DNA of 64,000 nucleotides from an uncultured Planctomycetota bacterium (GCA_963849325.1 CAWKHF010000002.1:480001-544000), one strand, 5' to 3'. Counted from the stretch's first letter, positions 23,700 through 64,000 are shown. Notes: a model not told the origin generated them from the sequence alone. Made by a program: numbers and translations.

Positions 23700-23853
23700 T
23701 CTTCCTGCGGATTAAGGCGTCCAGGCACGGAGGGCGTATTCCGGTTTTATACCGGCTTGCGCGGGAGGAAGACAGGGCAAGGAAAATCGCATGTCGCGGA
23801 CGGGGAGCGTGCGCAGTATCTTGGTAGTACACCATTCACCGAGGGAACGAGGC

Positions 23854-35550: not shown

Positions 35551-35580
35551 GCCGCTTGCGGCCTGGCGAGGACGCCTTTT

Positions 35581-35632
35581 CCGAGCCTGAAGCGTAAGCG
35601 AAGGAAACTCTTCGCTCACGCTTCAGGCTCGG
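35581..35632. repeat. REP-like palindrome family C
   Basis: CCGAGCCTGAAGCGTAAGCGAAG...CTTCGCTCACGCTTCAGGCTCGG. Confidence 0.85.
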
Positions 35633-35706
35633 ATGCGTTTTGCCCCCTAGCTCATAGAATAATCGTTTGTCCTTGTGGTCCTGGTCCCCGCGCAGGCGCT
35701 TGCTTC

Positions 35707-36645
35707 ATGGCCGCCGAACCGTACTTGCCTCGATTGACTGCTCGCCTCGCGGACGGCGTGGCTCGTCTGCCGGCCGAGGTCCGTGCTCGTCACGCTGCCT
35801 ACTTGCACGCCGCCCAGAATGAAGACGGCGGTTTCTCCGGCCGCGAGGGCGGCTCGGATTTGTATTACACCGGCTTCGCCCTGCGCGGCCTCGCCGTACT
35901 CGACGCCTTGACGCCGGCGGTCTGCGAGCGAGCGGCGAGCTATCTGCGGGGCTGCCTAACGCAGCAGGCCAGCGTTGTCGATTTCTTCTCCTTGCTCTAC
36001 GCCTGTCTGCTGGTGCAAACGGGCGGCGGTCCCGACGTGCTCGGCGACAGTCCGCCGGACTGGCCCGACCGCGTGGCCCAGACCCTGGAGAGTTTCCGCA
36101 CCTCCGACGGCGGCTATGCCAAGACCAGCGGCGGCATCTCGGGCAGTACCTATCACACGTTCCTCGTCGCCCTCTGCTATCAACTGCTGGGCCGACCGGT
36201 GCCGCGCTGGACCGACGTGGTGGGCTTCGTCGCCTCGCGCCGGCGCGAGGACGGCGGCTACGTCGAGATCGCCCCGATGCGTCGCGGCGGCACGAATCCG
36301 ACGGCCGCCGCCATCGGACTGCTGCAAATGGCGCACGAGGAAATTCCGGGGACACTCGACGAGGTCCGCGATGGTGCGATCGAATTCCTCGCCGGCATGT
36401 CGTCTCCGGAGGGCGGTCTGCGCGCCAACGGCCGAGCGCCGCTGGCGGATCTGCTGTCCACGTTCACGGCGGCGTGGACCCTCGAACAGCTCGGCGGCTT
36501 GTCGCGCCTGGACACGGAGCAAGCGCGGCGCTACGCCACGTCGCTGGAACGACGACAGGGCGGTTTCCACGGCGGACTATGGGATGAGGGATGCGATGTG
36601 GAATACACGTTCTACGGCATCGGCGTCCTGGCGCTCTTCGCGTAA
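35707..36645 (+). CDS. Prenyltransferase/squalene oxidase repeat protein (protein prenyltransferase beta-subunit-like)
   Basis: QNEDGGFSGREGGSDLYYTGFAL, DGGY, EGGL, GGFHGGLWDEGCDVEYTFYG repeats. Confidence 0.9.
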   Translation: MAAEPYLPRLTARLADGVARLPAEVRARHAAYLHAAQNEDGGFSGREGGSDLYYTGFALRGLAVLDALTPAVCERAASYLRGCLTQQASVVDFFSLLYACLLVQTGGGPDVLGDSPPDWPDRVAQTLESFRTSDGGYAKTSGGISGSTYHTFLVALCYQLLGRPVPRWTDVVGFVASRRREDGGYVEIAPMRRGGTNPTAAAIGLLQMAHEEIPGTLDEVRDGAIEFLAGMSSPEGGLRANGRAPLADLLSTFTAAWTLEQLGGLSRLDTEQARRYATSLERRQGGFHGGLWDEGCDVEYTFYGIGVLALFA

Positions 36646-47087: not shown

Positions 47088-48981
47088 ATGACCGCCCCGA
47101 CCATCCTGCTGGTCGATGACGACGAAGTGCTCAGCCAGGTGCTTCGTCGGGTGCTGACGCGCGACGGCTACACTGTGGTGGAAGCCGGCAGTGTCGCTCA
47201 GGCGCTGGAGCGCGCCCGCGAGCAGCGGCCGACTCTCGGCCTGGTCGATCTGCGCCTGCCCGACGGCGACGGCGTGGAGTTGGCCCAGCAGCTTCAGCAG
47301 CAAGTGGGCCGTTTTCCGCTCATCCTCATGACGGCCTATCCGCTGCGTCTGCGCGATCAGCCCGAACTGGCTCGGGGGTTCGCCCACGTCTTGACCAAGC
47401 CGCTCAACCTCGACGAGCTTCGTCAGGCCATCGAGACTAGCCTGGGCGCGACGGCGCCGGCCCGGCCGGGGAGTGCGGAGAAGCCAGCGCTGCCATCCAT
47501 CACCGAGACAGAAGTGGTTCGGCAGCCGCAACCGGAGCCGAGTCCGGTGAGGACAAGGGAACGGCCGCAGGCAAAGCCGAAGCGGCGCCGCCTGCGCTGG
47601 GCCATCGCCGCGAGTGGGATTGTGGCCCTGGTTGGTTTGGCCGTGGCCGTACCCGCTCTCGGCATGCCCAGCCTGCGGCGCTTCCTCAAGCCGCCGGAAG
47701 CGCGGCCCGTGGTCCCCGGCGGCGACTACCGGGCGCAGCTCGTCTCCGAAACCGAGGACGAGATCGAGTTGCCGCGCGACGTGGTCGAGCGGCTAGGCGT
47801 GACGAGTGAGCCGGTCCTGGAGACGGTGGCGCCGCGGACGCTGGAATTGGCCGGCTCGCTGGCCTTCGACCCCAATCGCCTCGGTCGCGTCCAGGCCCGC
47901 TTCGGCGGCGAGGTCGTCGCCATCGGCACGATGGCCGAACGCCGCGCCGACAACGGCACGACACACGAACGGACCCTGCGCTATGGCGACCCCGTCACCA
48001 AGGGACAGATCATGGCCGTGGTCCTGAGCAAAGATCTCGGTGAGAAGAAGAGCGAGTTGGTCGATTCGCTGGTGCGGCTGTGGTACGACGAAGCGCTGTT
48101 GTCGAGCCTGGACGAGTTGATTCGAGAGGGCCGCACGCCTCCGGCGACCGTCCGCACTCAGCGGACCGTGGTCGGCCGCCGACCGGAACGCGGTCGGACG
48201 GGTCGAACTAACTCTGCGGACCTGGCGCGTGGCCGAGGACGAGATCAACGCCGTCAAGGAAGAGGCCAAGCGGGTCTTCGAGCGCAAGGGGCAGCGCGAT
48301 CTGAAAAAGGAAACCGAGTGGGCCAAGGTCGAGGTGCGGGCGCCGTTCGACGGCACCATCGTCGAGAAGAGCGTGAACCTGGGCAACATCGTCGATACCA
48401 CTTTCGATCTCTTCAAGGTCGCCGACCTGCGCAAGCTCGGCGTACTGGTTCATGCTTACGAGGAAGACCTGCGCGAGTTGCAGACGATGTTGCACGAGCA
48501 GCCCCGAGGCTACCCCTGGCAAGTCCGCACCGGCGCCGACCTCACCCGCCAAGTGCTCCAAAGCGAGGGCATGCAGCAGATCGGACTGGTGGTCGATCCC
48601 ACGCAGCACACCGACCCGATCATGGGGTTGGTGGACAATCGGGACGGCAGGCTGCGCGTCGGCCAGTTCGTGACGGCGACAGTCGATTTGCCGTCGCCGC
48701 CCAACGTCGTCTCCCTGCCGGCGTCGGCCCTGGAGGAGGATGGCGCGGAGAGCATCGTTTTCGTCCAGCCCGATCCGACCAAGCCGCGCTACGTCCTGCG
48801 CCGCGTCCTGGTCGCCATGCGGCTGCGCGACATCGTCTACGTCCGCAGCGAGTTGACCGAGCAGGACCGCAAGAAGGGTCTGCAAGAAGTACGACCCGGC
48901 GAATACGTCGTCACCGAGGGCGTCCTGGAACTCAAGGCGGCGCTCGAGGAGTTGCAAGCAAAAGCAAAAGCCAAAAAATAA
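47088..48981 (+). CDS. Receiver domain fused to an RND periplasmic adaptor (CzcB/CusB-like; frameshift near 48175)
   Basis: LLVDDD, VDLRLPDGDG, MTAY, TKP; Pro-rich linker; TM; LAGSLAFDP, GDPVTKGQ, VRAPFDGTIVEK, LRVGQFV, GEYVVTEG. Confidence 0.9.
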
Positions 48982-49074
48982 GTTCTGAGTTCTGAGTGAA
49001 AGAGACTCAAGCTCTCATTGGCTCATGCGGCAGAACTCACTGAACTCAGAACTCAGAACTCAGAACTCAGAACT
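48981..49074. repeat. Heptamer tandem hairpin (TTCTGAG)n...(CTCAGAA)n
   Basis: AGTTCTGAGTTCTGAGTG...GAACTCAGAACTCAGAACTCAGAACTCAGAACT. Confidence 0.85.
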
Positions 49075-49079
49075 GAAGT

Positions 49080-52000
49080 ATGGTTCGCAAACTCATCGAG
49101 TGGGCCGTCAACAGCGCCCTGATCGTGCTCCTCCTGGCCGTCGGCCTGGCTGCGTTCGGCGTTTATGCCTTCAATCACGTCAACGTCGAAGCCTACCCCG
49201 ATCCGGCGCCGGCCATCATCGAAGTCATCGCCCAGTATCCCGGCTTCTCGGCCGAGGAGGTCGAGCGACGGGTGACGATCCCGCTGGAGGTCACCCTGGC
49301 CGGCATGCCGGGACTGACGTACACGCGCAGCAAATCGCTGGCCGGCCTGTGCTCACCTGCGCAACCAGTTCGATTACGGCATCGATTACTACGCCGCGCG
49401 CCAGGAAGTCATCAACCGCCTGCAATTCGTGCAGAACCTGCCCAACAGCGTCACCCCGCAACTGTCGCCGTTCACGCCGACCGGCGAGCTGATCCGCTAC
49501 ACCTTGGACAGGCCGAAAAACACGCGCGGCGAGGAAATTTACTCCCTGATCGATCTCAAATCGCTGCAGGACTGGACGCTGGAGCGCGAGTTTCGCCGTA
49601 TCCCGCGCATCGCCGACGTGTCCAGCTTCGGCGGCATGGTCAAGCGCTACGAGATCCAGCCGGACCCGGCTCGGCTCAAGCGCTACGGCATCACGCTTGC
49701 AGCAGTTCCAGACGGCCATCAGCAACAGCAACGCCAACATCGGGGCCGGCTATCTGCGGCAGGGACCGATCGCCATGAACGTGCGCGGCATCGGCCTGCT
49801 CGGCCGCGGCCAAGACCCGATGCAGCAGCGTGCTGGCCATGAAAAGCCCCTACCTGGCCGCTCGCCGCCTGCGCCAGCAGGAAGAAGCGCGCGTGCGCGA
49901 GATCCGCGACGTCGTCGTGGTGACGGTCAACAACGTGCCCATCCGCGTCGAGGACCTCGTCGCCGGCGGGCCGATCGATGAGCACGACGCAGATCGACGA
50001 AGCCGGCCGAGGCGCCGGACCCACTGGTTCGGCAGCGCCTCGGCGAAGGCGGCGCGAAGGCGGCGAACGCAACCGGCAACGAGGGCGTCGTGGTCGGCTA
50101 CCAGCCGCGCCTGGGCAAGGTCAGCGTGTGCCGGCCCAAGTACGACGACGACGGCAACGTGGTCCGCGATGAGCGAGGGCAACGTCGTCTGGGTGGACGA
50201 GGAAGACAAGGTACAGGGCATCGTCCTGATGCGCAAGAACGAGGCCACCCTGCTCGCCCTCAACAAGGTCAAGGAGAAGGTCGAGGAACTGAACGACACG
50301 CCGGGCCGTCTGCTGCCCGGCGTGCACGATCGAGCCGCACTTCGACCTGACCGGCCTCATCCACGTCACCACCGAGACCGTCCGCGAGAACCTGCTTCTG
50401 GGCATGATCCTGGTGACGGTCATCCTGTTCATGTTCCTCAGCAACGTCCGCAGCGCCCTCATCGTGGCCATCAACATCCCGCTGGCGCTGTTGTTCGCCT
50501 TCTCCGTGCTGTTCCTGCGCGGCAAGTCGGCCAACCTGCTGTCCATCGGGGCCGTCGATTTCGGCATCATCGTCGATTCGTCGGTCATCATGGTCGAGAA
50601 CATTTACCGCCATCTCAGCTCCGGCGAGTACGCGGAACTGCCGCTGAAGGAACGCATCATCCGCGCCTGCCACGAGGTCGAGCGGCCGCTGTTCTTCTCG
50701 ACGACGATCATGGTGTTCGCCTTCATCCCGCTGTTCACCATGCAGGGGCCGGAAGGACAAATCTTCGGGCCGATGGCCGACACCTATGCCTTCGCCCTGG
50801 CCGGCGGCCTGCTGCTGGCGCTGACCGTGGCGCCGGTGCTGTGCTTCCTGTTCTTCAAGAACCTCAAGCCGGCGCCGGACAACTGGCTGGTGCGCTGGCT
50901 GAAGCGCAGCTACCTGCACCAGCTGGAACGCTGTCTGAACCACCGCGTCGTGACGCTGACGCTGTTCGGCTCGCTCACGGCCGTCACCGTCGGCATCCTG
51001 CCCTTTCTGGGCCGCGAGTTCATGCCGGAGCTGGAGGAGGGCAACCTGTACATCCGCGGCACCTTCCCGGTCAACGCCTCGCTGGAGGAGGTGGCCGACA
51101 AGACGCGCCGGGCCCGGGCCATCCTCCGCGCGTACCCGGAGGTCGCCCTGGTCGCCTCGCAGGTCGGCCGGCCCGACGACGGCACCGACCCGACCGGCTT
51201 CTACAACGCCGAGTTCTCCATCCCGCTGCACCCCGACAAGCACTGGCCCGCCGTGGTGCCGCGCACGGGCTGGCTGAGCTGGCTCGGTCCCCGCGCCGCG
51301 CACCAAGCCGGAGCTGATCGACAGCCATGAACCAGCAGATGCACCGCGAGCTGATCGGCGTGGACTGGAACTTCTCGCAGTACATCCGCGACAACGTCAT
51401 GGAGTCGCTGTCCGGCGTCAAGGGCGACAACTCGGTCAAGATCATCGGCCCCGACCTCGACGAGCTGGAGAAACTGGCCGACGAGGTCAAGGCCGTGCTC
51501 GACACCGTGCCCGGCCTGGAGAACGTGGCCGTCTTCCGCATCAAGGGCCAGCCGAACCTGGAGTTCACCGTCGATCGGACCCGGTGCAAGTTCTGGAACG
51601 TCAGTGTGGCGGACGTGGAGAACGCCATCGCCATCGCCGTCGGCGGCCAGGCGTGTACGCAGATGGTCGAGGGCGAGAAGACCTTCGACATCACCCTGCG
51701 CTGGCCGGAGCGGCTGCGCGGCAACGAACAGGCCATCCTCGACATTCCCATCGAGGTGGCCAACAACACCGTCACGCCGGGCTATGTCCCCGGCACGCCA
51801 CAGACGCCGGTGACGGGAGCGAGCATCGGCGTCAATCCCATCGGCACCAACGTGCCCATGCCGTCGTTGTGGGGCAACATCTTCAACGCGGCGGTCAACA
51901 ACCTCAGCAGCGTGCCGCGCCTGCGCCTGGGGCAGCTGGTGACGCCGGTCAACGACGAGGGCCGGCCCGACCCGCACGGGCAAGTACCTGCGCTCCGGCG

Positions 52001-52693
52001 CCTCGACGATCTACCGCGAGCAGGGCAAGCGGCTGATCGCCGTCAAGTTCAGCGTGCGCGGCCGCGACCTGGCCGGCGCCGTGGCCGAGGCCCAGGAGAA
52101 GACGGCCGACCTGTTCAAGGCCCCTTACCGGGCCGAGTGGAGCGGCGAGTTTCAGGAGATGCTGGAAGCGGAGCACCGCTTGATGTACATCATTCCGCTG
52201 TCGCTGGCGGCGATCTTCGTGCTGCTGTACCTGGCATTCCACGACCTGGTCGACGCCCTGCTGGTCTTCTCCAACGTCGTCGCCCTGAGCGTCGGCGGCG
52301 TGTGGGCCTTGCTGCTGACAGGGACGAACTTCAGCATCTCGGCGGCGGTGGGCTTCATCTCGATCTTCGGCGTGGCCATCATGGATGGCCTGCTGCTGGT
52401 GTCCTACTTCAACCACCTGCGCGCCGAGGGATTGCCGCTGCGCGAGGCCATCATGCAGGGGGCGGAGAAGCGGGTGCGGCCGGTGATGATGACGGCGCTG
52501 ACGGCCATCTTCGGCCTGCTGCCGGCGGCGCTCTCGACGCGCATCGGCTCGCAGACGCAGCGGCCGCTGGCCATCGTCGTCGTCGGCGGCATGGTGACGA
52601 CGCTGTTTCTGACGCGCTACCTGATGCCGGTGCTTGTACAGCTTCTACGGCCACCGCGAGCCGCCCTCCGGCGGCGGCAGCCTGGCGCACTGA
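49080..52693 (+). CDS. RND efflux permease, CusA/CzcA family (several frameshifts)
   Basis: EAYPD, AEEVERRVTIPLE, ANLLSIGAVDFGIIVDSSVIMVEN, GREFMPELEEG, GFISIFGVAIMDG, RVRPVMMTAL, QRPLAIVVVGG. Confidence 0.95.
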
Positions 52694-52707
52694 CATATCC
52701 CACCACT

Positions 52708-52760
52708 AGCCCGGAGCGCCAACGACGGGTTGAGACAAATCGTCGCTGGCGCTCCGGGCT
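52708..52760. repeat. REP-like palindrome family B
   Basis: AGCCCGGAGCGCCAACGACGG...TCGTCGCTGGCGCTCCGGGCT. Confidence 0.85.
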
Positions 52761-52792
52761 TGTCGAGAAAATGTGTCGAAACCGCCAGTGGC

Positions 52793-52821
52793 TTGGCACT
52801 CCTCTCCGCGGCGCTTATACT
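52793..52821 (+). promoter_or_regulatory. Sigma70-type promoter of the propeller cluster
   Basis: TTGGCA-N17-TATACT. Confidence 0.6.
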
Positions 52822-52916
52822 GCGAACAGACGGCGTGTCCCGCCGTCGCCTGCCTCCCCGGGCTGCTCTTCCGTTTCATCGGAATGGGTAACACCTACCG
52901 CACGCCGAGGTCTTTC

Positions 52917-54194
52917 ATGAAGACAAAAACGCTGCTGGCAATCACTCTTGTCGCTGTCTGCCTTGCCCCGCTGTCGCTGTTCGCCCTCGATTGGCCACAG
53001 TGGCAAGGCCCCGACCGCACCAACGTCTCCAAGGAGACCGGCCTGCTCAAGGAATGGCCTCAAAGCGGGCCGAAACTGCTGTGGACTTCCGAGGACGCCG
53101 GTATGGGGTACTCGGCCCCGGCCATCGTCGGCGATCGGCTGTACTCGATGGGAGCGCGCGACGGCAAGGATTGGCTGTTCGCCTTGGATGGGAAGACGAG
53201 TCAAAAAAAATGGTCCACGCCGATTGGCGATCAATTCAGCAACAACCGAGGCAATGGTTCGCGTGGCACGCCCACGGTGGACGGCGATCGCATTTACGCC
53301 CTGGGGGGGCAGGGTAATCTCGTCTGCGTCAAGACCGATAGCGGCGAAATCGTCTGGCAGAAGAACCTCAAGCGTGATCTTGGCGGAAACATGCAGAACA
53401 ATTGGGGGTATTCCGAATCGCCCCTGATCGATGGCGCGGTCATCGTCTGCACGCCGGGCGGCAGCAAGGGGACCATCGCCGCCCTGGACAAGAACACCGG
53501 CGAGGTGCGCTGGCGGAGCAAGGGATTGATTGACGCCGCCGCCTACTCCTCGCTGGTGGTCTCGAACGCGGGCGGCGTGCGGCAGTACGTGCAGATGACC
53601 GGCAACAGCGTGACCGGCGTGGCCGCCAAGGATGGCCAGGTCCTCTGGAGTTTCAAACGCCCGAGCAACGTGGCGGCAATCCCTACGCCCATCTGCTTCG
53701 ATGATTCGGTGTACGTTTCCTCCGGCTACGGCACCGGCTGCGCCCTGCTGAAGATCAACAAGGATGGCTCCTCCTGGAAAGCGGAGCAGGTGTATGCCAA
53801 CAAGAACATGGTGAACCATCATGGCGGTGTCGTACACCTTGGCGACCATTTCTACGGTTACTCCGACGGCAAGGGCTGGGTGTGTCAGGATGCCAAGACC
53901 GGGGCGGTGGTGTGGCAAGAGCGGAATCGCCTGGGCAAGGGATCGTTGACCTGTGCGGAGGGTCGGCTGTATTGCTACAGCGAAAAAGACGGCACCGTGG
54001 TGCTTGTCGAGGCATCGCCGGCCGGCTGGAAGGAATCGGGCCGTTTCACGATCCCGCAACAAAGCAAACTGCCCCGTCCGAGCAGTCAACCCCGGAACAA
54101 CATCTGGACGCATCCGGTGGTGGCCAACGGCCGATTGTACCTGCGCGATCAGGATTTGATATTCTGTTACGACGTCAAGGGCGGCGAACGCTAA
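52917..54194 (+). CDS. PQQ-binding-like beta-propeller protein 1
   Basis: Signal peptide, DWPQWQGPDR, TPTVDGDRIY, WGYSESPLID, WTHPVVANGRLYLRDQ. Confidence 0.93.
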   Translation: MKTKTLLAITLVAVCLAPLSLFALDWPQWQGPDRTNVSKETGLLKEWPQSGPKLLWTSEDAGMGYSAPAIVGDRLYSMGARDGKDWLFALDGKTSQKKWSTPIGDQFSNNRGNGSRGTPTVDGDRIYALGGQGNLVCVKTDSGEIVWQKNLKRDLGGNMQNNWGYSESPLIDGAVIVCTPGGSKGTIAALDKNTGEVRWRSKGLIDAAAYSSLVVSNAGGVRQYVQMTGNSVTGVAAKDGQVLWSFKRPSNVAAIPTPICFDDSVYVSSGYGTGCALLKINKDGSSWKAEQVYANKNMVNHHGGVVHLGDHFYGYSDGKGWVCQDAKTGAVVWQERNRLGKGSLTCAEGRLYCYSEKDGTVVLVEASPAGWKESGRFTIPQQSKLPRPSSQPRNNIWTHPVVANGRLYLRDQDLIFCYDVKGGER

Positions 54195-54234
54195 CCCGCA
54201 AGCGGCAAACAGGACAATCATCCCCCGGTGAACC

Positions 54235-55530
54235 ATGCGAATCCTCCCGACCGTGTGCGCGGCGGCCCTGGTCTTTGTCCTGTCGGCGGCGGATTGGCCG
54301 CAGTGGCAAGGCCCCAACCGCGACGCCGTCTCGAAAGAGACCGGCCTGCTTGCGAAATGGCCCAAGGACGGACCCGAGTTGGCGTGGACGTTCGACAAGG
54401 CCGGCTCCGGCTACGCCGGTCCCGCCGTCGTCGGCGGCAAGCTGTACACGATGGGCGGCCGCGAAGGCAGCGAATACGTCTTCGCCCTGGATAACAAGGG
54501 CCAGGAACTGTGGAGCGCCAAGATCGGCTCGGTGTACGACTTCGAGGGCAACAACTGGAGCCGCGGCCCCAACGCCACGCCGACGGTAGATGGAGAGCGG
54601 CTCTTCGCACTGGGCAGCCAGGGCGTGCTGGTGTGCCTGGACACCGGCGGCAAGGAGCAATGGCGCAAGGATCTGCCGAAGGAACTCGGCGCCCAGGTCA
54701 GCACCGTCGGCGGCGGGCCGAAGGGCATGGGCTGGGGCTTCTCGTGGTCGCCGCTTGTCGATGGCGATCAACTCATCTGCGTGCCCGGCGGACCCCAGGG
54801 GTTGTTGGCGGCGCTGGACAAGAAGACCGGCGACGTGAAGTGGCGCAGCAAGGCCGTCACGGACCCGTGTCCGTACTCGTCGCCGATTGCGGCGACCCTC
54901 GGCGGCGTCAAGCAGTACGTCCAGGTGGTCAACGCCGGGGTCGTCGGCGTCGAGGCGAAGACCGGCGAGGTACTGTGGAACTTCAAACGCAAGAGACCGT
55001 GGAGCGACGTGCTGTGTCCGACGCCGATCTGCCGGGGTGATTGGATCTACGCGACAGGCACCAAGACGAGCGGCTGCACTCTCATCAAGGTCCACGCCGA
55101 CGGTGGGAAATTCAAGGCGGAGGAAGTGTATTCCAACAAGCTGATCTCGAACTTTCACGGTGGTGTCGTGCTGGTCGGCGATTACGTCTATGGTTATCAC
55201 GCCAACCGCGAATGGGCGTGCCAGAGTTTCGCCGAGGGCGGGGCCAACAAGTGGGAGTCGGACCCCAACGCCCTGGGGGCCGGCGGCTCGGGCGGCTCGA
55301 TCCTCGTCGCCGACGGCCGGCTGTACTGTCTGGCCGATAGCGAGGGCGCCGGCGTCGTCGGCATGATCGAAGCTCGGCCGGACAAATACAGCGAAATATG
55401 CCGCTTCACACTGCCGCGAAAGTCTACCCTGCGCAAAGAGAGCGGCGGCGTGTGGACGCACCCGGTCCTCTCGGATGGATACCTTTACCTGCGCGATCAG
55501 GAATTGATCTTCTGCTACAAGGTGAAATGA
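54235..55530 (+). CDS. PQQ-binding-like beta-propeller protein 2
   Basis: Paralogue of the previous gene: DWPQWQGPNR...WTHPVLSDGYLYLRDQ. Confidence 0.93.
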   Translation: MRILPTVCAAALVFVLSAADWPQWQGPNRDAVSKETGLLAKWPKDGPELAWTFDKAGSGYAGPAVVGGKLYTMGGREGSEYVFALDNKGQELWSAKIGSVYDFEGNNWSRGPNATPTVDGERLFALGSQGVLVCLDTGGKEQWRKDLPKELGAQVSTVGGGPKGMGWGFSWSPLVDGDQLICVPGGPQGLLAALDKKTGDVKWRSKAVTDPCPYSSPIAATLGGVKQYVQVVNAGVVGVEAKTGEVLWNFKRKRPWSDVLCPTPICRGDWIYATGTKTSGCTLIKVHADGGKFKAEEVYSNKLISNFHGGVVLVGDYVYGYHANREWACQSFAEGGANKWESDPNALGAGGSGGSILVADGRLYCLADSEGAGVVGMIEARPDKYSEICRFTLPRKSTLRKESGGVWTHPVLSDGYLYLRDQELIFCYKVK

Positions 55531-55545
55531 GGAAATGCGCCCTTG

Positions 55546-55609
55546 GTTAGCCGCGACGCGCAGCGGAGCGCGCGACAGACCCGCGCTCCGCTGCGCGTCG
55601 CGGCTAAAC
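55546..55609. repeat. REP-like palindrome family A
   Basis: GTTAGCCGCGACGCGCAGCGGAGCGCG...CGCGCTCCGCTGCGCGTCGCGGCTAAAC. Confidence 0.9.
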
Positions 55610-55631
55610 GGGAGGTAGAACGGGAGAGGCC

Positions 55632-56955
55632 ATGTTCGCCGCGCCGCGGGATGACATCGCACGGGCGGAGTTGGCCCACTGGCAAATCCAACGCCTGTCT
55701 CTTCTCCTGCGTGACATTCTCCCCGGCAATCGCTTCTACGCTCGCAAGTTTCAGCAAGCCGGGATCGATGTCGCCTCCCTATCCCTACCCGCCGACCTGC
55801 CACGCCTCCCCTTCACGACCAAGTCGGAACTGCTCGATGACCAGGCCCAACATCCTCCCTACGGCGAGATTTTAACGTATCCGGTCGAGCACTACAGCCG
55901 ATTGCACCAAACGTCCGGCACGGCGGGACGGCCGCTGCGCTGGCTGGATACGCCGGAGAGTTGGTCGCGGCTGCTCGACTGCTGGATGACGATGCTCGGC
56001 ATGGCCGGCGTGACGGCGGCGGATCGGCTGTTCTTTCCCTTCTCCTTCGGGCCGTTCCTCGGCTTCTGGACGGCGTTCGAGGCGGCGTCGCGGTTGGGCT
56101 GTCTGTGTCTGCCCGGCGGCGGCCTGAGCAGTTCGGCCCGTCTGCGCTTCCTGCTCGACAACCAGGCGACCGTCATCCTGTGTACGCCCACTTATGCCCT
56201 GCACCTGGCGGAGATCGCGCAGACCGACGGTATCGATTTGGTCGGCTCAACGGTGCGCAAAGTGATCGTCGCCGGCGAGCCGGGCGGCAGCATCCCGGCG
56301 ACGCGCGGCCGCATCGAGAGCGCCTGGGGAGCGCGGCTGTTCGATCACACCGGCATGACGGAAACCGGCCCGCTGGGGATTGAATGTTCCGAGCAGCCGG
56401 GCGGTCTACATCTGTTGGAGACCGAATGCCTGGCGGAAGTGATCGACCCCGAGACCACGCAGTCGGTGCCGGCCGGGACCGAGGGCGAACTGGTGCTGAC
56501 CACATTCGATCGACCAGGCAGTCCGCTGGTGCGCTACCGCACCGGCGACCTGGTGCGCGTCGATCCGCGGCCGTGTCCGTGTGGCCGGGCGCTGGTGCGC
56601 CTCGACGGCGGCATCCGCGGCCGCGTCGATGACATGATTGTCCTTCGCGGCAACAACTTGCATCCCAGCGCCTTGCAGACCATTCTGCATCGTCTCGCCG
56701 AGGTCGCCGAGTATCGCATGGAAGTCGATTACAAAGCCGCGCTGCCGGTCCTGCGCATCGAGGTCGAGCCGCGACCCGGCGTCGCCGGCGACGCCCTGGC
56801 TCGAGCGCGTCGAACACGCCATCCGCACGGAACTGCTTTTCCGCGCCGAGGTGCGGGCCGTTCCGCCCGGAAGTCTGCCCCGCTACGAAATGAAGGCCCG
56901 CCGACTGGTACGAAAAAACGAACCAGGTACTGCAAGCGATCCCTCGAAATCGTAA
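55632..56955 (+). CDS. Phenylacetate--CoA ligase (PaaK)-like adenylating enzyme (frameshift near 56795)
   Basis: LPFTTK, QTSGTAG, TPTYAL, GEPGGS, GMTE, RYRTGDLV, GRVDDM. Confidence 0.92.
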
Positions 56956-56959
56956 AAAA

Positions 56960-57040
56960 GCAATCAGCGGTCAGCGATCAGCAGTCAGCAAAACACAACC
57001 GGACGGATCGCTGATCGCTGATCGCTGACCGCTGATCGCT
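56960..57040. repeat. Heptamer tandem hairpin (GATCAGC-like)n...(GCTGATC)n
   Basis: CAATCAGCGGTCAGCGATCAGCAGTCAGC...GATCGCTGATCGCTGATCGCTGACCGCTGATCGCT. Confidence 0.85.
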
Positions 57041-57059
57041 TACCAAGAGAGCCGATCCC

Positions 57060-59378
57060 ATGAAGCACTGCCTCCCCCTGCTGCTGGTCCTGTTCGGCTG
57101 GACGGCGACGATCCGCGCCGACAACTGGTCGTCCTGGCGCGGCCCGGAACAGACCGGCGTTTCCCGCGACACCGGCCTGCCCGACACCTTCGCCGTCGAG
57201 AAGGACAAGGAAAAGAACATCGTCTGGCGGACGCCGTATGGCGGGATCACCACGCCGGTCATTCAGAACGGCCGGGTTTACGTCATCAACAAGGTCGGCG
57301 AGGACGAGTCGCAGCAAGAGCGCGTCATGTGCTTCGACGCCAACGACGGCAAGGTGCTATGGCAGCACAAGTTCAACGTCTTCCTGACCGACATCGTCGC
57401 CGACCGGCTCGGCTGGACGCAGATGGTCGGCGACGCCGAGACGGGCAACGTCTATGCTCACGGTACGCAGGGCTTTCTCTTCTGCTTCGACAAGGACGGC
57501 AAGATCCGCTGGAAGCATTCGCTGACCGAGGAATACGGTCGCATCAGCGGCTACGGCGGACGCATCACCAGTCCGATCCTGTTCGAGGATCTGCTCATCA
57601 TGCCGCTGGTCAACGCCAACTGGGGCGAACAGACGGTCGGCGGCACGCGGTTGGTTGCCTTCAACAAGCGCAGCGGCGAGGTCGTGTGGTGGTCGTCCAC
57701 GAATTATCGCGTTAAAGACACCTTCGCCTGCATGCCGGTCGTCGCCAAGATCGGCGGACAATGGCTGGTCATCACGGGTGCCGGCGACGGCGGGGTCCAC
57801 GCCTTCAAGGCCCGCACCGGCGAGAAGGTGTGGAGCTATATTTTCGCCGCCGGGGCGATCAACGCCTCGCCGGTCGTGGACGGCGATTTGGTGTACGCCG
57901 GCCACGGCGAGGCCAACATCGACGGCCGACGAACAGGGTCGCGTCATCTGCCTGGACGCCGGCAAGGTCGAGGACGGCAAGCCGAAGCTGGTCTGGAAGG
58001 TGGACGGCATCCGCGTCAAATACGCCTCGCCGCTCTTGCATGATGGCCGGCTGTACGTCTGCAACGTCGTCGGCGAGATGTATTGCCTGGATGCCAAGAA
58101 CGGCAAGCAGCTGTGGAAGTATCAGTATGGCCAAAACACGCGCGGCTCGCCGGTCTGGGGCGACGGCAAGATTTACCTGCCCGAATTGGATTCGCAGTTC
58201 CACATCCTCAAGCCCGACGACGAAAGAGTGCAAGTCGCTCTGTTCGGAGTTTTTCCGCGGCGCCGGCGAGGCGCCGGTGGAGCTGACTGGCAGTCCGGCC
58301 ATCGCCAATGGCCGCCTCTACTTCCTGACCAGCGAGGAACTGCTGTGCATCGGTAAGAAGGACCACAAGGCGGCCGACGCCGGCAAGACGCCGGAGCAGC
58401 AGACGGATCGTCAGGCACCGGCCGACGCCAAGCCGGCGCATCTGCAGGTGGTGCCGGCCGACGTGGCCCTGACGCCGGGCCAGAGCGTCAATTTCAAGGC
58501 GCTGGCCTACGACGACCACGGCCGACTGATCGGCGAGGTCAAGGCGGATTGGTCGCTGGCCGGGCCGCTGCCTCCCGTGTTTCCCATCGGCATGCCGACG
58601 CCGCCGCAGCCCAAGTCGCCGCCGTCTCCGCCGCCGCCCATGAACGGCAAGCTCAGTCACGACAGCGGTACGACCACCAAGCTGACCGTCGGCAACGCCG
58701 CCGCCGGCGCAGTTTGGCCGCGTCGTCGCCAAGGCGAACGGCCTGACCGCTTCCGTCCGCGTGCGCGTGGCGCCGCTGTTACCCTACGCCATCGACTTCG
58801 CCAAGGTGCCGCTCGGCCGCACGCCCGGCGGCTGGGTCAACTGTCAGGGCAAGTTCGCCGTCGCCAAGATGAAGGACGGCACCGTCGCCCTCAAGAAACG
58901 CAACGACGCGCCCAGTCCTCTCGTGGCGCGGGCCCGCACCTACATCGGCATGCCCGACCTGACCGACTACACCATCGAGGCCGACATGCAGGGCACCAAA
59001 CGACAAGCCGACATGCCCGACATGGGCATCGCGGCCAACCGCTATCGCCTCGCTCTGATCGGCAACGCCCAGCAATTACGGCTGGTTTCCTGGGACGCGC
59101 TGCCGCGTATCGACAAATCCATCGCCTTCGCGTGGAAGCCCGACGTCTGGTATAGCATGAAACTGACCGTCGAGGTCCAGGGCGACAAGGCCATCGCGCG
59201 CGGCAAAGTGTGGCCGCGCGATCAGCCGGAGCCGAAGGCGTGGACGCTCACGGTCGAGGATACCACCCCCAACCGCGAAGGCGCTCCCGCCCTGTACGGC
59301 AACTCCACCGGCATCCAGGAGAAGACGCCCGGCACGGAAATCTACTACACCAACGTCAAGGTCACGCCGAACAAATAA
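57060..59378 (+). CDS. PQQ-like beta-propeller protein 3 with Ig-like and beta-sandwich C-terminal domains (frameshifted)
   Basis: NWSSWRGPEQTG, GRISGYGGRITSP, SPAIANGRLY, HLQVVPADV, YTIEAD, WYSMKL, GKVWPRDQPEP. Confidence 0.88.
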
Positions 59379-59380
59379 AC

Positions 59381-59436
59381 AGTTCTGAGTTCTGAGTGAA
59401 AGACATAGAACTCAGAACTCAGAACTCAGAACTCAG
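59381..59436. repeat. Heptamer tandem hairpin (TTCTGAG)n...(CTCAGAA)n
   Basis: AGTTCTGAGTTCTGAGTG...AGAACTCAGAACTCAGAACTCAGAACTCAG. Confidence 0.85.
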
Positions 59437-59438
59437 GA

Positions 59439-61113
59439 ATGTCATCCATGCAATCCCTCCCGAATCTGCGCCGTGTGGTATCGCTGGCCGGGACCGCGCT
59501 GGTGTTCGTCGTGGTCCTCGTCGTGGTCGGACTGCAATCGTCGTCGCCGGACGCCTCCTCGGCCAAGGCCGACGCCGGCAAGGACGACCGCCGCGATTGG
59601 CCGATGTACGGCGGCACCCTGTCGCGCGATCTCGTCAACCTCCACGACAAGGGCATGCCGACCAACTGGGACGTCACCGAGGGGCAGGAGAAGAACATCA
59701 AGTGGAGCGTGCCCCTGGGCGACAAAGCCTACGGCGGACCCATCGTCGCCGGCGGCAAGATTTACGTCGGCACCAACAACAAAAACCCGCGCGATCCGAA
59801 AATCAAGGGCGACAAGGGCATCCTGCTGTGCTTCCGCGAGTCGGACGGCGAGTTCTTCTGGCAGGCGGTCCACGACAAGCTGGCGGCCGGCCGCGTCAAC
59901 GACTGGCCCGGCGAGGGCATCTGTTCCAGCCCTATCGTCGAGGGCAATCGACTGTACTACGTCAGCAACCGCTGTGAGGTCATTTGCGCCGACGTGGACG
60001 GCATGGCCAACGGCAACCAGGGCGAGCAGGACGAGAACTACAAGGGCGACAAGGACGCCGACATCATCTGGCGGCTGGACATGATCGGCAAGCTGGGCGT
60101 TTTTCCGCACAACCTGGCCGTCTGTTCGCCGTTGATCGTCGGCGACACGCTATTCGTCATCACCGCCAACGGCGTGGACGAGGGACACATCAACATTCCC
60201 AACCCTGCCGCGCCGAGCTTTTTGGCCATCGACAAGAAGACCGGCAAAGTGCTGTGGAAGGACAACGCGCCGACGCGCAGCCTGGTCGAGGCCCAGAAAG
60301 CCGGTGCGGCCGTCAACATCCGCAAGATGGTCAACGCCGGTCAACTGTTGATGCACGGCCAATGGTCCAACCCCGTCTACGCCGAGGCGAACGGCAAACC
60401 GATGATCATCTTTCCCGGCGGCGACGGCTGGATTCGCGCCTACAACCCCAAGGACAGCTCGCTTTTGTGGAAGTTCGATTGCAATCCCAAGGGCACCAAG
60501 TACGTCCTCGGTCCGGCGGCCACGCGCAATGACTTCGTTGGTACGCCGGTCGTCTGGGAGAACAAGCTGTACATTGCCGTCGGCCAGGATCCCGAGCACA
60601 AGAAAAGTGTCGGTCATCTGTGGTGCATCGACATCACCAAGCAGCCGAAAAACGAGGACAAGGATCTCACGCCGGTCAAGAACAACTTCGATCCCAAGGC
60701 GGCGGTCAACAAGGATTCCGGCCTGGTCTGGCATTACGGCGGCAAGGCGCCGCCGGGTGTCCGCCGCAATTACTCGTTCGGACGTTCGATGAGCACTTGC
60801 GCCGTCCACGACGGCCTGTGCTACGCCGCCGACTTCGATGGCTATTTCTACTGTCTCGATGCCAACACTGGCGAGAAATACTGGGACGAATCCTGGGCGC
60901 CGACACCTGGAGTTCGCCGTATTGGGTGGACGGCAAGATTTACATCGGCAGCGAGAACGGCACGATGCACGTCTTCCAGCACGGCAAGAACAAGAAGGCG
61001 CAAGTAAGATCGACATGCAGGCCGACGCCATCCGCGCGACGCCCGTGGCGGCCAACGGCGTGCTGTACACGATCACCGAGAACCCGTGCAAGCTGTGGGC
61101 GATCAAGAAGTAG
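59439..61113 (+). CDS. PQQ-like beta-propeller protein 4 (late frameshifts)
   Basis: DWPMYGG, VGTNN, DWPGEGICSSP, FPHNLAVCSP, HGQWSNP, GQDPEH, TPVAANGVLY. Confidence 0.9.
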
Positions 61114-61141
61114 CCGGGCATTACGAGGGAGGGCGGACGGG

Positions 61142-62702
61142 ATGCGCTGGACAACGGGTTTGCGAATGGGGCCGGCTGCCGGGGTGTTCCTGGTGTTGCT
61201 GGGCATGGCCTGTTCCGGCCGCTCGCCGTCCGGCGCGGACAAGGCGGAGCCGTCCGGCGCGGACAAGGCGGAGCCGTCCGCGCAACCGCAGGCCGGGCGC
61301 ACTCGTGGCCGATGTTCGGCGGCACCGTCCAGCGCAACCTGGCCAACACGACGGACACCAACCTCCCCAACGAATGGAGCATCAAGAAGGGCAAGGAGAA
61401 GAACGTCAAGTGGACCGCCAAGCTGGGCAGCAAGGGACTCGGCGGTCCCGTCGTGGCCGATGGCCGGATCTTCATCGGCACCAATAACGCCGAGGGCGAC
61501 AAGGGCGTCCTGAAATGCTTCCGCGAGTCGGACGGCAAACCCCTGTGGGAAGCGGTCCACGAAAAACTCGACGACAACAGCGGCGCGCAAAGCTACGGCA
61601 TCGTCTCGACGCCGTGCGTGGACGGCGACCGCCTGTACTACGTCAACAACCGCTGGGAGGTGATTTGCGCCGACGTCGCCGGGGAGGGCGGCAAGGCCAA
61701 GATCGTGTGGACGCTCGACATGGTCAAGGAGCTGAAAGTCTATCCCGGCGGCATCCAGGGCAGTTTGTCGATCTGTTCGCCGCTGGTCGTGGAAGACCTG
61801 GTGTTCGTGGTAACGGCCAACGGGGCGGACGCGATGGGCAAGGTGCCGGCGCCGGCGGCGCCGAGCTTTCTCGCCCTGGACAAGAAGACGGGCAAGGTGG
61901 CCTGGCAGGACCATTCGCCGGGCAAAAACATCATGGATGGCCAGTGGGGCAATCCGGCGGCGGCCCGCGTCAACGGGCGATGGCAAGTCCTCTTCCCCGG
62001 CGGCGACGGCATGGCTGTACGGCTTCGAGGCGAAGACGGGCAAACTGCTGTGGAAGTTCGATTGCAACCCCAAAGGGGCGGACTTCAAGGCCGGCGGCCG
62101 CGGTACGCGCAACTACATCGTCTCGGCCCCCGTCGTCTGGGACAACAAGGCTTTACGTCGCCACCGGCCGCCATCCCGATGAACCGCACGGCGAGGGCCA
62201 TCTGTGGTGCATCGACCTCACCAGGGAGCCGAAGAACAAGGACAAGGATTTGTCTCCCGTCAACAACAACTTCGATCCCAAGGCCGAGGCCAACAAGGAC
62301 TCCGGTCTCATCTGGCACTTCGGCGGGTCCGTCATGCCCAAACCGGAGGGCGCTGGACGGGAATATGTCTTCGGCCGCAGTGTCAGCACGGTCGCCATCC
62401 ACGACGGCCTGCTCTACGTCGCCGACCTCGCCGGATACTTGTACTGCCTGGATGCCGGCACGGGCCGAAAGCTCTGGGATGCCGATCTCAAGGCGAGCGT
62501 GTGGGCCTCGCCGTTCTACGCGGACGGCAAGGTCTACATCGGCACCGACGACGGCAGCCTGTTCGTGTTCCCGCATGGCAAGGAAGCGAAGAAGCCGGCT
62601 AAGATGGACATGGAGGAGGCGCTGCTCAGTCCGGTGATGGCGGTCAACGGCGTGCTGTACGTCAGCAACGGTTACAACCTGTACGCCCTCGCCGCCAAGT
62701 GA
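61142..62702 (+). CDS. PQQ-like beta-propeller protein 5, probable lipoprotein (frameshifted)
   Basis: LLGMAC lipobox-like motif, WPMFGG, IGTNN, DGQWGNP, GHLWCID; close paralogue of protein 4. Confidence 0.88.
61225..61280 (+). repeat. 24-bp direct tandem duplication in lipoprotein linker
   Basis: GCCGTCCGGCGCGGACAAGGCGGA x2 plus partial third (PSGADKAE). Confidence 0.9.
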
Positions 62703-62777
62703 CGATTTACCCCAAGTCGTTTCGCGGCGGCTCGCCGATCCGACGCGAAACACCGATCGACAACCGAGGAACTTTCC

Positions 62778-63879
62778 GTGTCCGCTACCGCCAACGCCGA
62801 CCAGGTCCGCCAGGCCCGCGAAAAGCTCGATGCCCATGTCTGCGACATCGTCGCCTGGCATTTCAGCCCCGACACCGGCACGCCGTTCTGGCTCGAACGC
62901 GCCAAGTCCTTTCAGTTCAACCCGCTCAAGGACGTGCAGGGTTTCGACGACTTGAAGCTGTTCGGGCTTTTCGAGGACGAATGGCTTCGCGGCGGCCCGG
63001 TGCGGCGCTGGGTGCCCAAGGCGCTGCACAACAAGCCGACTTACGTTTTCGAGACCGGCGGCACTACCGGCATCCCCAAGAGCCGCGTCGTCCAGGACGA
63101 CTTCCGCATCGACTACGAGATGTTCAGCGACACTCTGCCGGAGAAGTATTTCCCCAGAGGGTCAAACTGGCTCATGCTCGGTCCGTCCGGCCCGCGGCGT
63201 CTGCGTCTGGCGGTCGAGCACCTCTGCCAATACCGCGGCGGCATCTGCTTCTGCGTCGATCTCGATCCGCGCTGGGTCGTCAAGCTCATCAAGAAGGGCT
63301 GGATGGAGCACCTGAAGGCGTACCAGGAGCACGTCATCGACCAGGCGCTGACGGTGCTGTCGGCCAACCACGAAATCAAGTGCATGTTCACGACGCCGAA
63401 GCTGCTCGACGCCCTGGCGACGCGGCTGGAGAAGGACGGTTCGAGCATCGCGCAAGCAGGGCATCATCGGCATCTTCTGCGGCGGCACCGAGATGACCTC
63501 GCAGTGGATTCGCTTCGCCATCGAGGAATTGCTCGGTCCCAGCGTGTACATCGCTCCTACCTACGGCAACACGCTGATGGGCCTGGCCGCGGCGGAGATG
63601 CCGACGGCGGAACAGAACTACAAGATCGCCTACTACGCTCCGCAGCCGCGCGCCGTCGTGCAGGTGGTGGACTTCAAGGATTACGACAAGGTCGTGGACT
63701 ATGGCCAGACAGGCCGGGTGATGCTGACGACGTTGACGAAGGAATTTTTCGTGCCGCGCTTCGCCGAGCGCGACGAGGGCGAGCGCGAGCCGCCCAGCGC
63801 GAAGTATCCGTGGGACGGCGTCAGCGGCGTGCGGCCGTTCCACGAATTCGCCGCGAGCACGACGGTCGGAGTGTATTGA
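62778..63879 (+). CDS. EhpF/GriC-like adenylate-forming enzyme (GTG start; frameshift near 63460; main frame missing from the ORF track)
   Basis: Translated by eye: WHFSPDTGTPFWL, VFETGGTTGIPK, VDLDPRWV, FTTPKLL, GGTE, YGNTLMG, RVMLTTL, ERD; GAGGA RBS. Confidence 0.8.
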
Positions 63880-63897
63880 CCGACGAGGAGACAAGCG

Positions 63898-64000
63898 ATG
63901 CCATCACCGTTTCCAGGGATGGACCCGTATCTGGAAGATCCCTGGATCTGGCCGGACTTCCATCTGACCTTTGCGGTTGGGCTTCGTACGGAGTTGAACC
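63898..64000 (+). CDS. DUF4058 family protein, 3'-truncated by window edge
   Basis: GAGGAG RBS, MPSPFPGMDPYLE...WPDFH. Confidence 0.85.
   Translation, partial: MPSPFPGMDPYLEDPWIWPDFHLTFAVGLRTELN

Follow-up and report, generated by a model that had tools for sequence, protein, structure and literature searches.

Why should genes for five exported beta-propellers stand in one row with genes for two different adenylate-forming enzymes? This question is raised by a 64,000-nucleotide stretch of DNA from an uncultured Planctomycetota bacterium (GCA_963849325.1 CAWKHF010000002.1:480001-544000), which we call the window. Seven genes, all on the + strand, span its positions 52917-63879: five propellers (P1 to P5), a ligase resembling PaaK and an enzyme resembling EhpF and GriC. 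An earlier note on this DNA had described the same row of five propellers and two adenylate-forming enzymes; Pfam, NCBIfam and PDB matches place every gene where it was said to lie and bear out both enzyme identities. The gaps, put there at about 30-105 bp, are 28-104 nt in our corrected gene models. From the comparisons given below we lean, with modest confidence, towards regarding the stretch as the core of an old and widely kept multi-gene system that would link the chemistry of carboxylic acids in the cytoplasm with a constant group of exported beta-propellers.

We mapped the window proteins onto 40 loci centred on the EhpF-like gene, taken from the genus, family, order and class of the host and from other families of the phylum. 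We found that a gene for an aldehyde dehydrogenase (ALDH)-like protein adjoins the EhpF-like gene in 36 of the 40 loci and that an iron-containing alcohol dehydrogenase (Fe-ADH) gene is present in 27. P3 and P4 lie upstream in 24, with two more loci ending inside P4, and the PaaK-like gene lies within 13 kb upstream in 23. Members of the same family and order share the gene order of the window, and so does one distant family. Ten compact loci from five other families carry the PaaK-like gene 7-11 kb downstream instead. There the order is P3, P4, in some cases P5, EhpF-like, ALDH-like, Fe-ADH, a sixth propeller (P6, missing from one of the ten), a radical S-adenosylmethionine (radical SAM) enzyme, a chorismate-lyase-like protein, an FAD halogenase-like enzyme, a GT4 glycosyltransferase, a 4HBT thioesterase, a small membrane protein, the PaaK-like ligase and an FtsX/MacB-type permease.

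The genes also occur together when whole genomes are compared. For a phyletic profile we searched one 400-genome sample of the phylum with four protein queries and compared the tables by hand. A close EhpF-like gene (E<=1e-100) was found in 78 genomes, and the scores are bimodal (78 at E<=1e-103, the next best at 9e-59). A P3 ortholog (E<=1e-40) was present in exactly the same 78 of the 400 genomes, none having one gene alone. The flavin halogenase-like gene (E<=1e-75) was found in 77 of the 78 and in one other genome (87% completeness) without the rest, while 57 of the 78 have a close PaaK-like gene (at least 46% identity), with one borderline 45% match outside the set. The distribution is patchy inside families (4/8, 7/23, 2/5, 2/12 and 2/8) and therefore points to repeated joint loss or gain.

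A scan with a P4 alignment, one genome per species, returned at least 576 encoding stretches, of which the best 80 were analysed. These come from Planctomycetota (26), Acidobacteriota (42), Poribacteria (3), Latescibacterota (2) and others (7), and P3 is the upstream neighbour of P4 in 76 of them. Fe-ADH was present in 41, P6 in 34 and the EhpF-like gene in 31, with either the EhpF-like gene or Fe-ADH in 52; many of these loci are short, so the neighbour counts are lower bounds. Because the same arrangement recurs in many genomes, the linkage of propellers and acid-activating enzymes is real and old, far beyond chance. The earlier note had proposed gene-neighbourhood and phyletic profiling and had asked whether the ligases might be unlinked to these propeller subfamilies elsewhere; we found them linked in other genomes, both by gene order and by profile.

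What chemistry do the linked enzymes suggest? For the EhpF-like protein (62778-63879, with an apparent frameshift near 63461) neither Pfam nor NCBIfam gives a match; it was placed through EhpF (PDB 3l2k), which it matches at E 2.5e-29 over residues 23-220 and at E 4e-10 over residues 233-354. The phosphate-loop motif (S/T)GGTTGxPK is present, ETGGTTGIPKS aligning to ESGGTTGAPK of EhpF. Pfam finds no C-terminal ANL domain on the protein, and EhpF itself reportedly does without a separate one. Intact relatives are mostly 364-370 residues long (EhpF has 366). At 90% identity its relatives form at least 8000 clusters, and the best 120 are 82-93% identical to the protein.

Past the end of the window the contig continues with a DUF4058 gene, the ALDH-like gene, Fe-ADH and P6, in that order. 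The DUF4058 gene (+ strand, Pfam 3e-66) starts in the window at 63898-64000 and continues to 64686 (L001:13898-14686); it lies between the EhpF-like and ALDH-like genes and overlaps the start of the latter by 4 nt. This insertion is shared by three of the 40 related loci (L044, L051 and L053) and is absent from the others. The ALDH-like gene (64683-66026 in extended window coordinates) matches Pfam Aldedh at 5e-21, and thus the expectation of the earlier note that a reductase partner of the EhpG/GriD type would be found beyond the window was borne out by an ALDH-family gene. Read by eye against what we take to be the two ALDH reference motifs, the protein retains the cysteine in GRGCINCSG and has AHGPGFSK at the position of ELGGK, with histidine in place of the general-base glutamate. 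Neither it nor the EhpF-like protein has a LuxE or LuxC Pfam match at E<=0.01. The Fe-ADH gene (about 66300-67425, Pfam Fe-ADH 2e-21) follows. The EhpF/GriC-like and ALDH-like proteins together are a predicted split, that is two-protein, carboxylate reductase.

One other genome carries two EhpF-like copies. The second, 60% identical, lies in a cluster of PaaK-like, P3, P4, EhpF-like, Fe-ADH and P6 genes without an ALDH-like gene (L098, G351:C1:3712000-3731900); the first lies elsewhere, beside an ALDH-like gene on the opposite strand.

The ligase gene (55632-56955, + strand, one apparent frameshift near 56800) belongs to the PaaK family of acyl/aryl-CoA ligases by the NCBIfam PaaK models. Its true C-terminus was found in another reading frame. 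The scores are 221 bits against a cut-off of 700 for NF041878 and 192 against 646 for TIGR02155, short of the PaaK equivalog cut-offs. An ortholog (L091) has both the AMP-binding and AMP-binding_C_2 domains, matches PDB 6hdw at 1e-47 and the PaaK structure 4r1l at 7e-46, and is nearest to 2-hydroxyisobutyryl-CoA synthetase and phenylacetate-CoA ligases. As the earlier note had said, there are no paa catabolic genes among the Pfam matches of open reading frames in the window.

Further enzymes join the set in the compact loci, where the interval holds a HemN-like radical SAM enzyme, a 190-residue protein, a flavin enzyme, GT4, the 4HBT thioesterase and a small membrane protein of four to five helices; a 1100-residue FtsX/MacB-type permease follows the ligase, with an ABC ATPase nearby in some. 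The flavin enzyme has CmlS as its nearest halogenase, and GxGxxG and WxWxIP, the latter diagnostic of flavin-dependent halogenases, are present in ten of ten orthologs. CxxxCxxC and GGGTP are likewise present in ten of ten orthologs of the radical SAM enzyme. The C-terminal pattern of the 190-residue protein resembles what we take to be that of UbiC. Its profile matches the DUF98 structure 2nwi, weakly, at E 8e-4, and its nearest Atlas clusters carry PF01947 or PF04345 on 11-19% of their members.

Relatives of several of these genes are found in the present genome. The radical SAM enzyme, the 190-residue protein, GT4 and the thioesterase have relatives at C2:648-660 kb, a copy of the flavin enzyme lies at C4:428694-429866, and there is a weaker FtsX-type match on C6; the query used for the small membrane protein found no relative in this genome. 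The second locus on contig C2 (L101, G000:C2:644001-662000) carries the 4HBT thioesterase, the chorismate-lyase-like gene and the HemN-like radical SAM gene in pieces. It also shows an apparent 1006-residue MFS-GT4 fusion, possibly an assembly artefact, and interleaved genes for a polyprenyl synthetase, DUF116, a squalene-hopene-cyclase fragment and a ferredoxin-like protein. We do not count the polyprenyl synthetase and the cyclase fragment as members, both being absent from the ten compact clusters. The earlier note had also suggested that a prenyltransferase-beta-like gene (35551-36645) may belong to the same pathway. This is not supported: the gene has no relative in any of 72 loci (reaching at most about 13 kb from the anchor), and unrelated genes on both strands intervene.

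The exported side of the system consists of four orthologous propeller groups (P1/P2, P3, P4/P5 and P6) with predicted export signals. P1 (52917-54194, Pfam PQQ_2 at E 5e-39) and P2 (54235-55530, E 4e-28) are intact PQQ_2/BamB-like proteins of 48% identity, and they and P4/P5 form two tandem paralog pairs. P3 (57060-59378, 8e-25) joins a signal peptide, a propeller, an Ig-like linker and a 220-residue C-terminal domain. P4 (59439-61113, 1e-14, one apparent frameshift near 61000) is a membrane-anchored 8-bladed propeller, and P5 (61142-62702, matched in two frames at 2e-13 and 4e-10) is its lipoprotein-type paralog. P6 lies beyond the window at about 67475-68606 and matches Beta-prop_ACSF4 at 7e-49, above its cut-off. 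The earlier note held the propellers to be exported, and all five carry N-terminal export signals when read by eye: P1 (MKTKTLLAITLVAVCLAPLSLFA), P2 and P3 have signal peptides, P4 has a membrane anchor and P5 a lipobox. We also noticed a perfect 24-nt tandem repeat of 2.3 copies at 61225-61280, which codes for SGADKAEP twice in the N-terminal linker of P5 after the lipobox.

None of the six propellers reaches the model of the pyrroloquinoline quinone (PQQ)-dependent dehydrogenases. Against TIGR03075, the PQQ-dependent alcohol dehydrogenase model, the propellers score 16-55 bits where 480 are required, the frame-1 fragment of P5 giving no match, and against TIGR03300 (BamB) they score 20-64 bits where 285 are required. 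A structure model of a P4 ortholog (L041) is an 8-bladed propeller (predicted local distance difference test score 85.5, predicted template modelling (TM) score 0.85). By fold it is closest to BamB (chains at Foldseek E 2e-20, TM 0.72-0.79 over the target), tetrathionate hydrolase and PQQ dehydrogenases (TM 0.53-0.59 over the query), with which it shares 12-17% identity. Sequence matches to solved proteins are limited to the last blades of P4. In 105 P4 sequences from several phyla, 26 polar residues are at least 95% conserved, including H224, H250, H306, H387 and the motif QDPEH, and this invariant His/Asp/Glu set sits where no solved protein matches by sequence. We read the four histidines and acidic residues as the signature of a putative binding or catalytic site and not of the scaffold, and possibly of a metal site.

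Among the relatives of P4 (768 clusters at 50% identity, E<=1e-30) we examined 16 long proteins. Ten of these have an N-terminal M56 domain of the BlaR1 type and three have a Ser/Thr kinase with WD40 repeats (examples are proteins P0136, P0152, P0167, P0194, P0213 and others, from other organisms). Eight of the 16 long fused forms retain all four histidines, and another one retains three of them. Because of these fusions, P4-type propellers are predicted to serve also as outward-facing domains of signal transducers. No M56- or kinase-fused P4 paralog was found in this genome at E<=1e-20. The 220-residue C-terminal domain of P3, whose intact orthologs have 766 residues, matches nothing in Pfam or the PDB; a weak Atlas lead points to PF06439, a 3-keto-disaccharide hydrolase fold.

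How might these proteins work together? The enzymes would act on one aromatic acid, most likely a hydroxybenzoate derived from chorismate, which would be tailored by the flavin halogenase-like and HemN-like radical SAM enzymes. The PaaK-like enzyme would form a CoA thioester that the 4HBT thioesterase could undo. With ATP and NAD(P)H the EhpF-like/ALDH-like pair would reduce the carboxylate to an aldehyde, Fe-ADH would carry it on to the alcohol, and GT4 may glycosylate it. Membrane transporters would then take the compound across the inner membrane, and outside the cytoplasm the propellers would bind or transform it, P4 and P5 through the invariant four-His/acidic site; P3 would bring an additional lectin-like domain. 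We favour a hydroxybenzoate-like acid because the lyase-like and flavin enzymes, a 4-hydroxybenzoyl-CoA-type thioesterase and a GriCD-type reductase occur together; family names and one published proposed model, that of BaaA/BaaB (see below), point to it. An aromatic-acid substrate, which the earlier note had proposed, is thus made plausible by the chorismate-lyase-like, WxWxIP flavin halogenase-like and 4HBT thioesterase genes that join the set elsewhere.

The same genes could also serve a flow in the opposite direction. The exported propellers would then trap an aromatic, possibly halogenated, acid from outside the cell or convert it, transporters would import it, and the enzymes would activate, reduce, conjugate or detoxify it. 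We consider this unlikely, though it deserves attention. In a Terriglobia locus P3 is preceded by a P1-type propeller and an SBF-family symporter, and the symporter means that flow may be inward, a point against synthesis and export. The outward-facing position of P4-type propellers on BlaR1-like proteins and kinases, in 13 of the 16 long relatives, also fits recognition of a molecule from outside. Three observations tell against uptake, however. The chorismate-lyase-like gene lies within the compact clusters and so speaks for a source inside the cell. Permeases of the MacB/FtsX type, a type known for export, are present with an ABC ATPase. Finally, reduction of an acid to an alcohol at the cost of ATP and NAD(P)H is unusual in catabolism. 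The permeases and the biosynthetic-looking first enzyme favour synthesis and export.

Taken further, synthesis and export leads to a more specific proposal, which we put forward tentatively and regard as unlikely; it takes up the suggestion of the earlier note that the product may be a cofactor or ligand of the propellers. A tailored benzyl compound derived from chorismate (halogenated, methylated, reduced and perhaps glycosylated) would be exported as a dedicated cofactor or signal of the propellers, the P4 pocket would be a metal-assisted binding or catalytic site, and the BlaR1-like and kinase receptors would sense the same molecule.

Several observations weigh against a propeller-coupled acid pathway as we have drawn it. 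The window proteins miss all PaaK, BamB and PQQ-dehydrogenase equivalog cut-offs, and the halogenase-like protein stays below that of CmlS (227 bits against 900) and has a resemblance to the QhpG/LodB monooxygenases as well. Chorismate lyase is a weak assignment, and Pfam matches none of seven members of the 190-residue family. In this genome the tailoring genes lie outside the cluster, on C2, C4 and C6 as given above, and their tie to it rests on other genomes. Kin genomes are not independent, so the profile overstates the support, and half of the loci were picked by the very features later counted. The strong hairpins at four gene junctions in the window, described below, weigh on the view of a single transcript. 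PQQ bears on the ligand as well. The earlier note had seen no pqq genes, which is true of the window; the genome, however, has a pqqC gene (L111, G000:C6:740516-741190) at 331 bits against a curated cut-off of 240. The host planctomycete thus probably makes PQQ, and some of the propellers could use it.

Could the propellers and the enzymes be two independent modules, a periplasmic propeller set and a cytoplasmic acid-reducing pathway, that merely stand side by side? One well-sampled family has its cluster genes scattered on the chromosome yet all present, with EhpF-like/ALDH-like, PaaK-like and P3-P4 at separate loci. In such dispersed sets P3 and P4 stay adjacent, and Fe-ADH, P6, radical SAM, the 190-residue lyase-like protein and the halogenase-like flavin enzyme stay together. 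Loci of the Pyrinomonadaceae type pair P3-P4 with Fe-ADH and P6 and have no EhpF-like gene within 10 kb. A tree was made of 77 distinct EhpF-like proteins, a sample biased by the selection of half of the loci through P4. For 56 of the proteins a P4-family gene is found no more than 4 kb upstream, for 14 it is absent and for 7 it could not be judged; the linkage state changes six times on this tree. Against this, the EhpF-like gene and P3 are identical in presence even where they are unlinked, and the linkage recurs in differing gene orders in four or more phyla. We therefore judge two separate modules to be improbable and keep to a single coupled system.

The sequence of the cluster is itself broken in places. 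Nine apparent 1-nt frameshifts, all +1, occur in 11 kb and interrupt five of the seven genes: one each in the PaaK-like gene, P4 and the EhpF-like gene, three in P3 (near 57920, 58215 and 58708) and three in P5 (near 61290, 62010 and 62150). At these points the frame changes with no stop codon followed by a new start. The G+C content of the DNA is 63-70%, so frames could be traced through third-position G+C, whose periodicity runs on across every shift. In the same assembly (14 contigs, only 85% completeness) rpoB (G000:C1:334967-338611) is spread over four frames, and the AcrB-like gene that precedes the cluster (49318-52709) is likewise in pieces. The EhpF-like gene is also split in other few-contig, low-completeness genomes of the genus, whereas short-read genomes of the genus have uninterrupted orthologs at 90-97% identity. 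At one same-genus locus all genes are uninterrupted, P5 being intact at L039 6716-8206. Because rpoB is also split and the same-genus genes are intact, the nine shifts are assembly errors. A decaying cluster of genuine frameshifts and mostly pseudogenes, to which the nine shifts in so short a stretch might point, is therefore very improbable, and we dropped it in view of the split rpoB, the intact short-read orthologs, the likewise split few-contig genomes and the unbroken periodicity. The assembly has many single-base indel errors, and any gene call in this genome needs its frames checked.

Four junctions of the cluster carry hairpins, all on the + strand. The first, inverted repeat I3, follows the AcrB-like gene at the left boundary (52705-52763, minimum free energy -43.4 kcal/mol, z -6.5). 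The second, inverted repeat I2, is a perfect 26-bp hairpin between P2 and the ligase (55547-55607, -66.3 kcal/mol, z -9.4). A heptamer-repeat hairpin lies between the ligase and P3 (56958-57041, -55.0 kcal/mol, z -11.2), and an (AGTTCTG)n/(AGAACTC)n hairpin lies between P3 and P4 (59381-59442, -27.6 kcal/mol, z -5.3). For these four hairpins none of 200 shuffles folds as well. No T-run follows any of the four, and for this reason we do not list the hairpin at 52705-52763 as a terminator. Similar hairpins with stems of 16-36 bp were found at junctions, never inside genes, in 10 of the 12 related loci checked (L039-L053 included). This suggests that they may be a genome-wide element of the lineage resembling repetitive extragenic palindromes.

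The earlier note had also placed one sigma70-like promoter before the first propeller. We found the site, TTGGCA-17-TATACT at 52793-52821 on the + strand, and it is the sole match in 52500-64000. A single match is nonetheless at the chance level, shuffles giving 1.3 on average, and the standing of the site as a promoter is weakened accordingly. A look for public sequencing runs containing this DNA (54000-63900) as a source of expression evidence listed none.

The AcrB-like RND pump gene immediately upstream of the cluster (48121-52709) was set aside as a member: it adjoins the cluster in one of the 40 EhpF-centred loci, and the later locus search found no relative of it. Elsewhere in the window a 1151-residue open reading frame (23716-27171, + strand) joins regions 2 and 4 of a sigma-70 factor of the extracytoplasmic function type to a long array of WD40 propeller repeats, an unusual fusion.

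The gene set described here is among the more widespread ones without an assigned function that we could find: bacteria from soil, water and sponges, belonging to at least four phyla, keep it together. Planctomycetes and acidobacteria show a huge expansion of exported PQQ-like propellers, for most of which there is no explanation. Their constant genetic link to a small-molecule pathway would offer a concrete route to the ligands and roles of four or more subfamilies of propellers. The two-protein carboxylate reductases, which have been little studied and are of interest as biocatalysts, would gain a physiological substrate as well. In the literature on EhpF/EhpG, GriC/GriD, planctomycete halogenases and chorismate lyases, and clusters with PQQ-like propellers, we found no described function for the cluster.

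How does the set compare with known systems? Its propellers are like BamB and the PQQ-dependent alcohol dehydrogenases in the 8-bladed fold of the P4 model, and all window propellers match Pfam PQQ_2. They differ in their low identity to these proteins, in missing the curated models widely and in the unmatched His/Asp/Glu region of P4.

Its carboxylate reductase is closest to EhpF/EhpG of the phenazine pathway in Pantoea agglomerans: the EhpF-like protein, equally short at about 365 residues, aligns with EhpF over nearly its full length. In the accessible part of one paper ehpF is followed by the ALDH-family ehpG (PMC11278526), just as an ALDH-family gene follows the EhpF-like gene here. For GriC/GriD of the grixazone pathway in Streptomyces griseus, the accessible part of another states that GriC forms the acyl-AMP and GriD reduces the aromatic acid (PMC10179220). 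The present set differs from both pairs in that no phenazine or grixazone genes are found here. Its adenylating protein is far more conserved, as the identities of its best 120 relatives indicate; 108 of the 401 genomes sampled from the phylum contain it, and it goes with exported propellers.

The tailoring genes recall BaaA and BaaB of Planctomycetales strain 10988. As far as the accessible text of that preprint goes, BaaA (chorismate lyase-like) and BaaB (a halogenase) are proposed to make 3,5-dibromo-p-anisic acid, with the lyase-like gene directly before the flavin halogenase gene, as in our compact clusters (bioRxiv 10.1101/723874). The same part of the source describes the pair alone, with no propellers, ligases or reductase (bioRxiv 10.1101/723874). 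The likeness drawn here is one of gene types and gene order. A further difference is that the halogenase-like gene of this genome lies on another contig.

The nearest published work that we found is a 2026 sponge-metagenome preprint, in the accessible part of which no function is assigned (bioRxiv 10.64898/2026.08.03.742642). In the 'Halo_AMP' clusters described there a flavin halogenase goes with an AMP-binding enzyme resembling PaaK/BagE; PQQ-like domains occur in them 'at high frequency', and they also contain a glycosyltransferase, a thioesterase and a radical SAM enzyme. They come from Acidobacteriota, Latescibacterota and Poribacteria, the phyla in which we also find P3-P4 loci (bioRxiv 10.64898/2026.08.03.742642). 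In contrast to our set, these clusters are defined by antiSMASH rules and, in that part of the text, are given no function, the authors pointing to brominated peptides; the comparison was made by description (bioRxiv 10.64898/2026.08.03.742642). New in the present work are the joining of the upstream half (P1/P2, PaaK-like, P3 and P4/P5) to the same set, the exact co-occurrence of the EhpF-like gene and P3, the tie to a pair of the BaaA/BaaB type, and the conserved site of P4 and its receptor use.

A broader analogy is offered by PQQ, heme d1 (NirJ with NirF/N/S) and quinohemoprotein amine dehydrogenase (QhpD/G/F with QhpB), in which cytoplasmic tailoring, often by a radical SAM enzyme, goes with exported propellers. 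The present set differs in that we saw no homology to PqqA-E, Nir or Qhp proteins past a weak match of the QhpG/LodB type, and no precursor-peptide gene. The likeness is that a radical SAM enzyme, a QhpG/LodB-like flavoprotein, an ABC-type transporter and exported propellers stand in one set. If the cofactor or signal proposal is true, the set would represent a new system for an extracytoplasmic cofactor or signal, shared by several phyla and with a logic analogous to that of PQQ.

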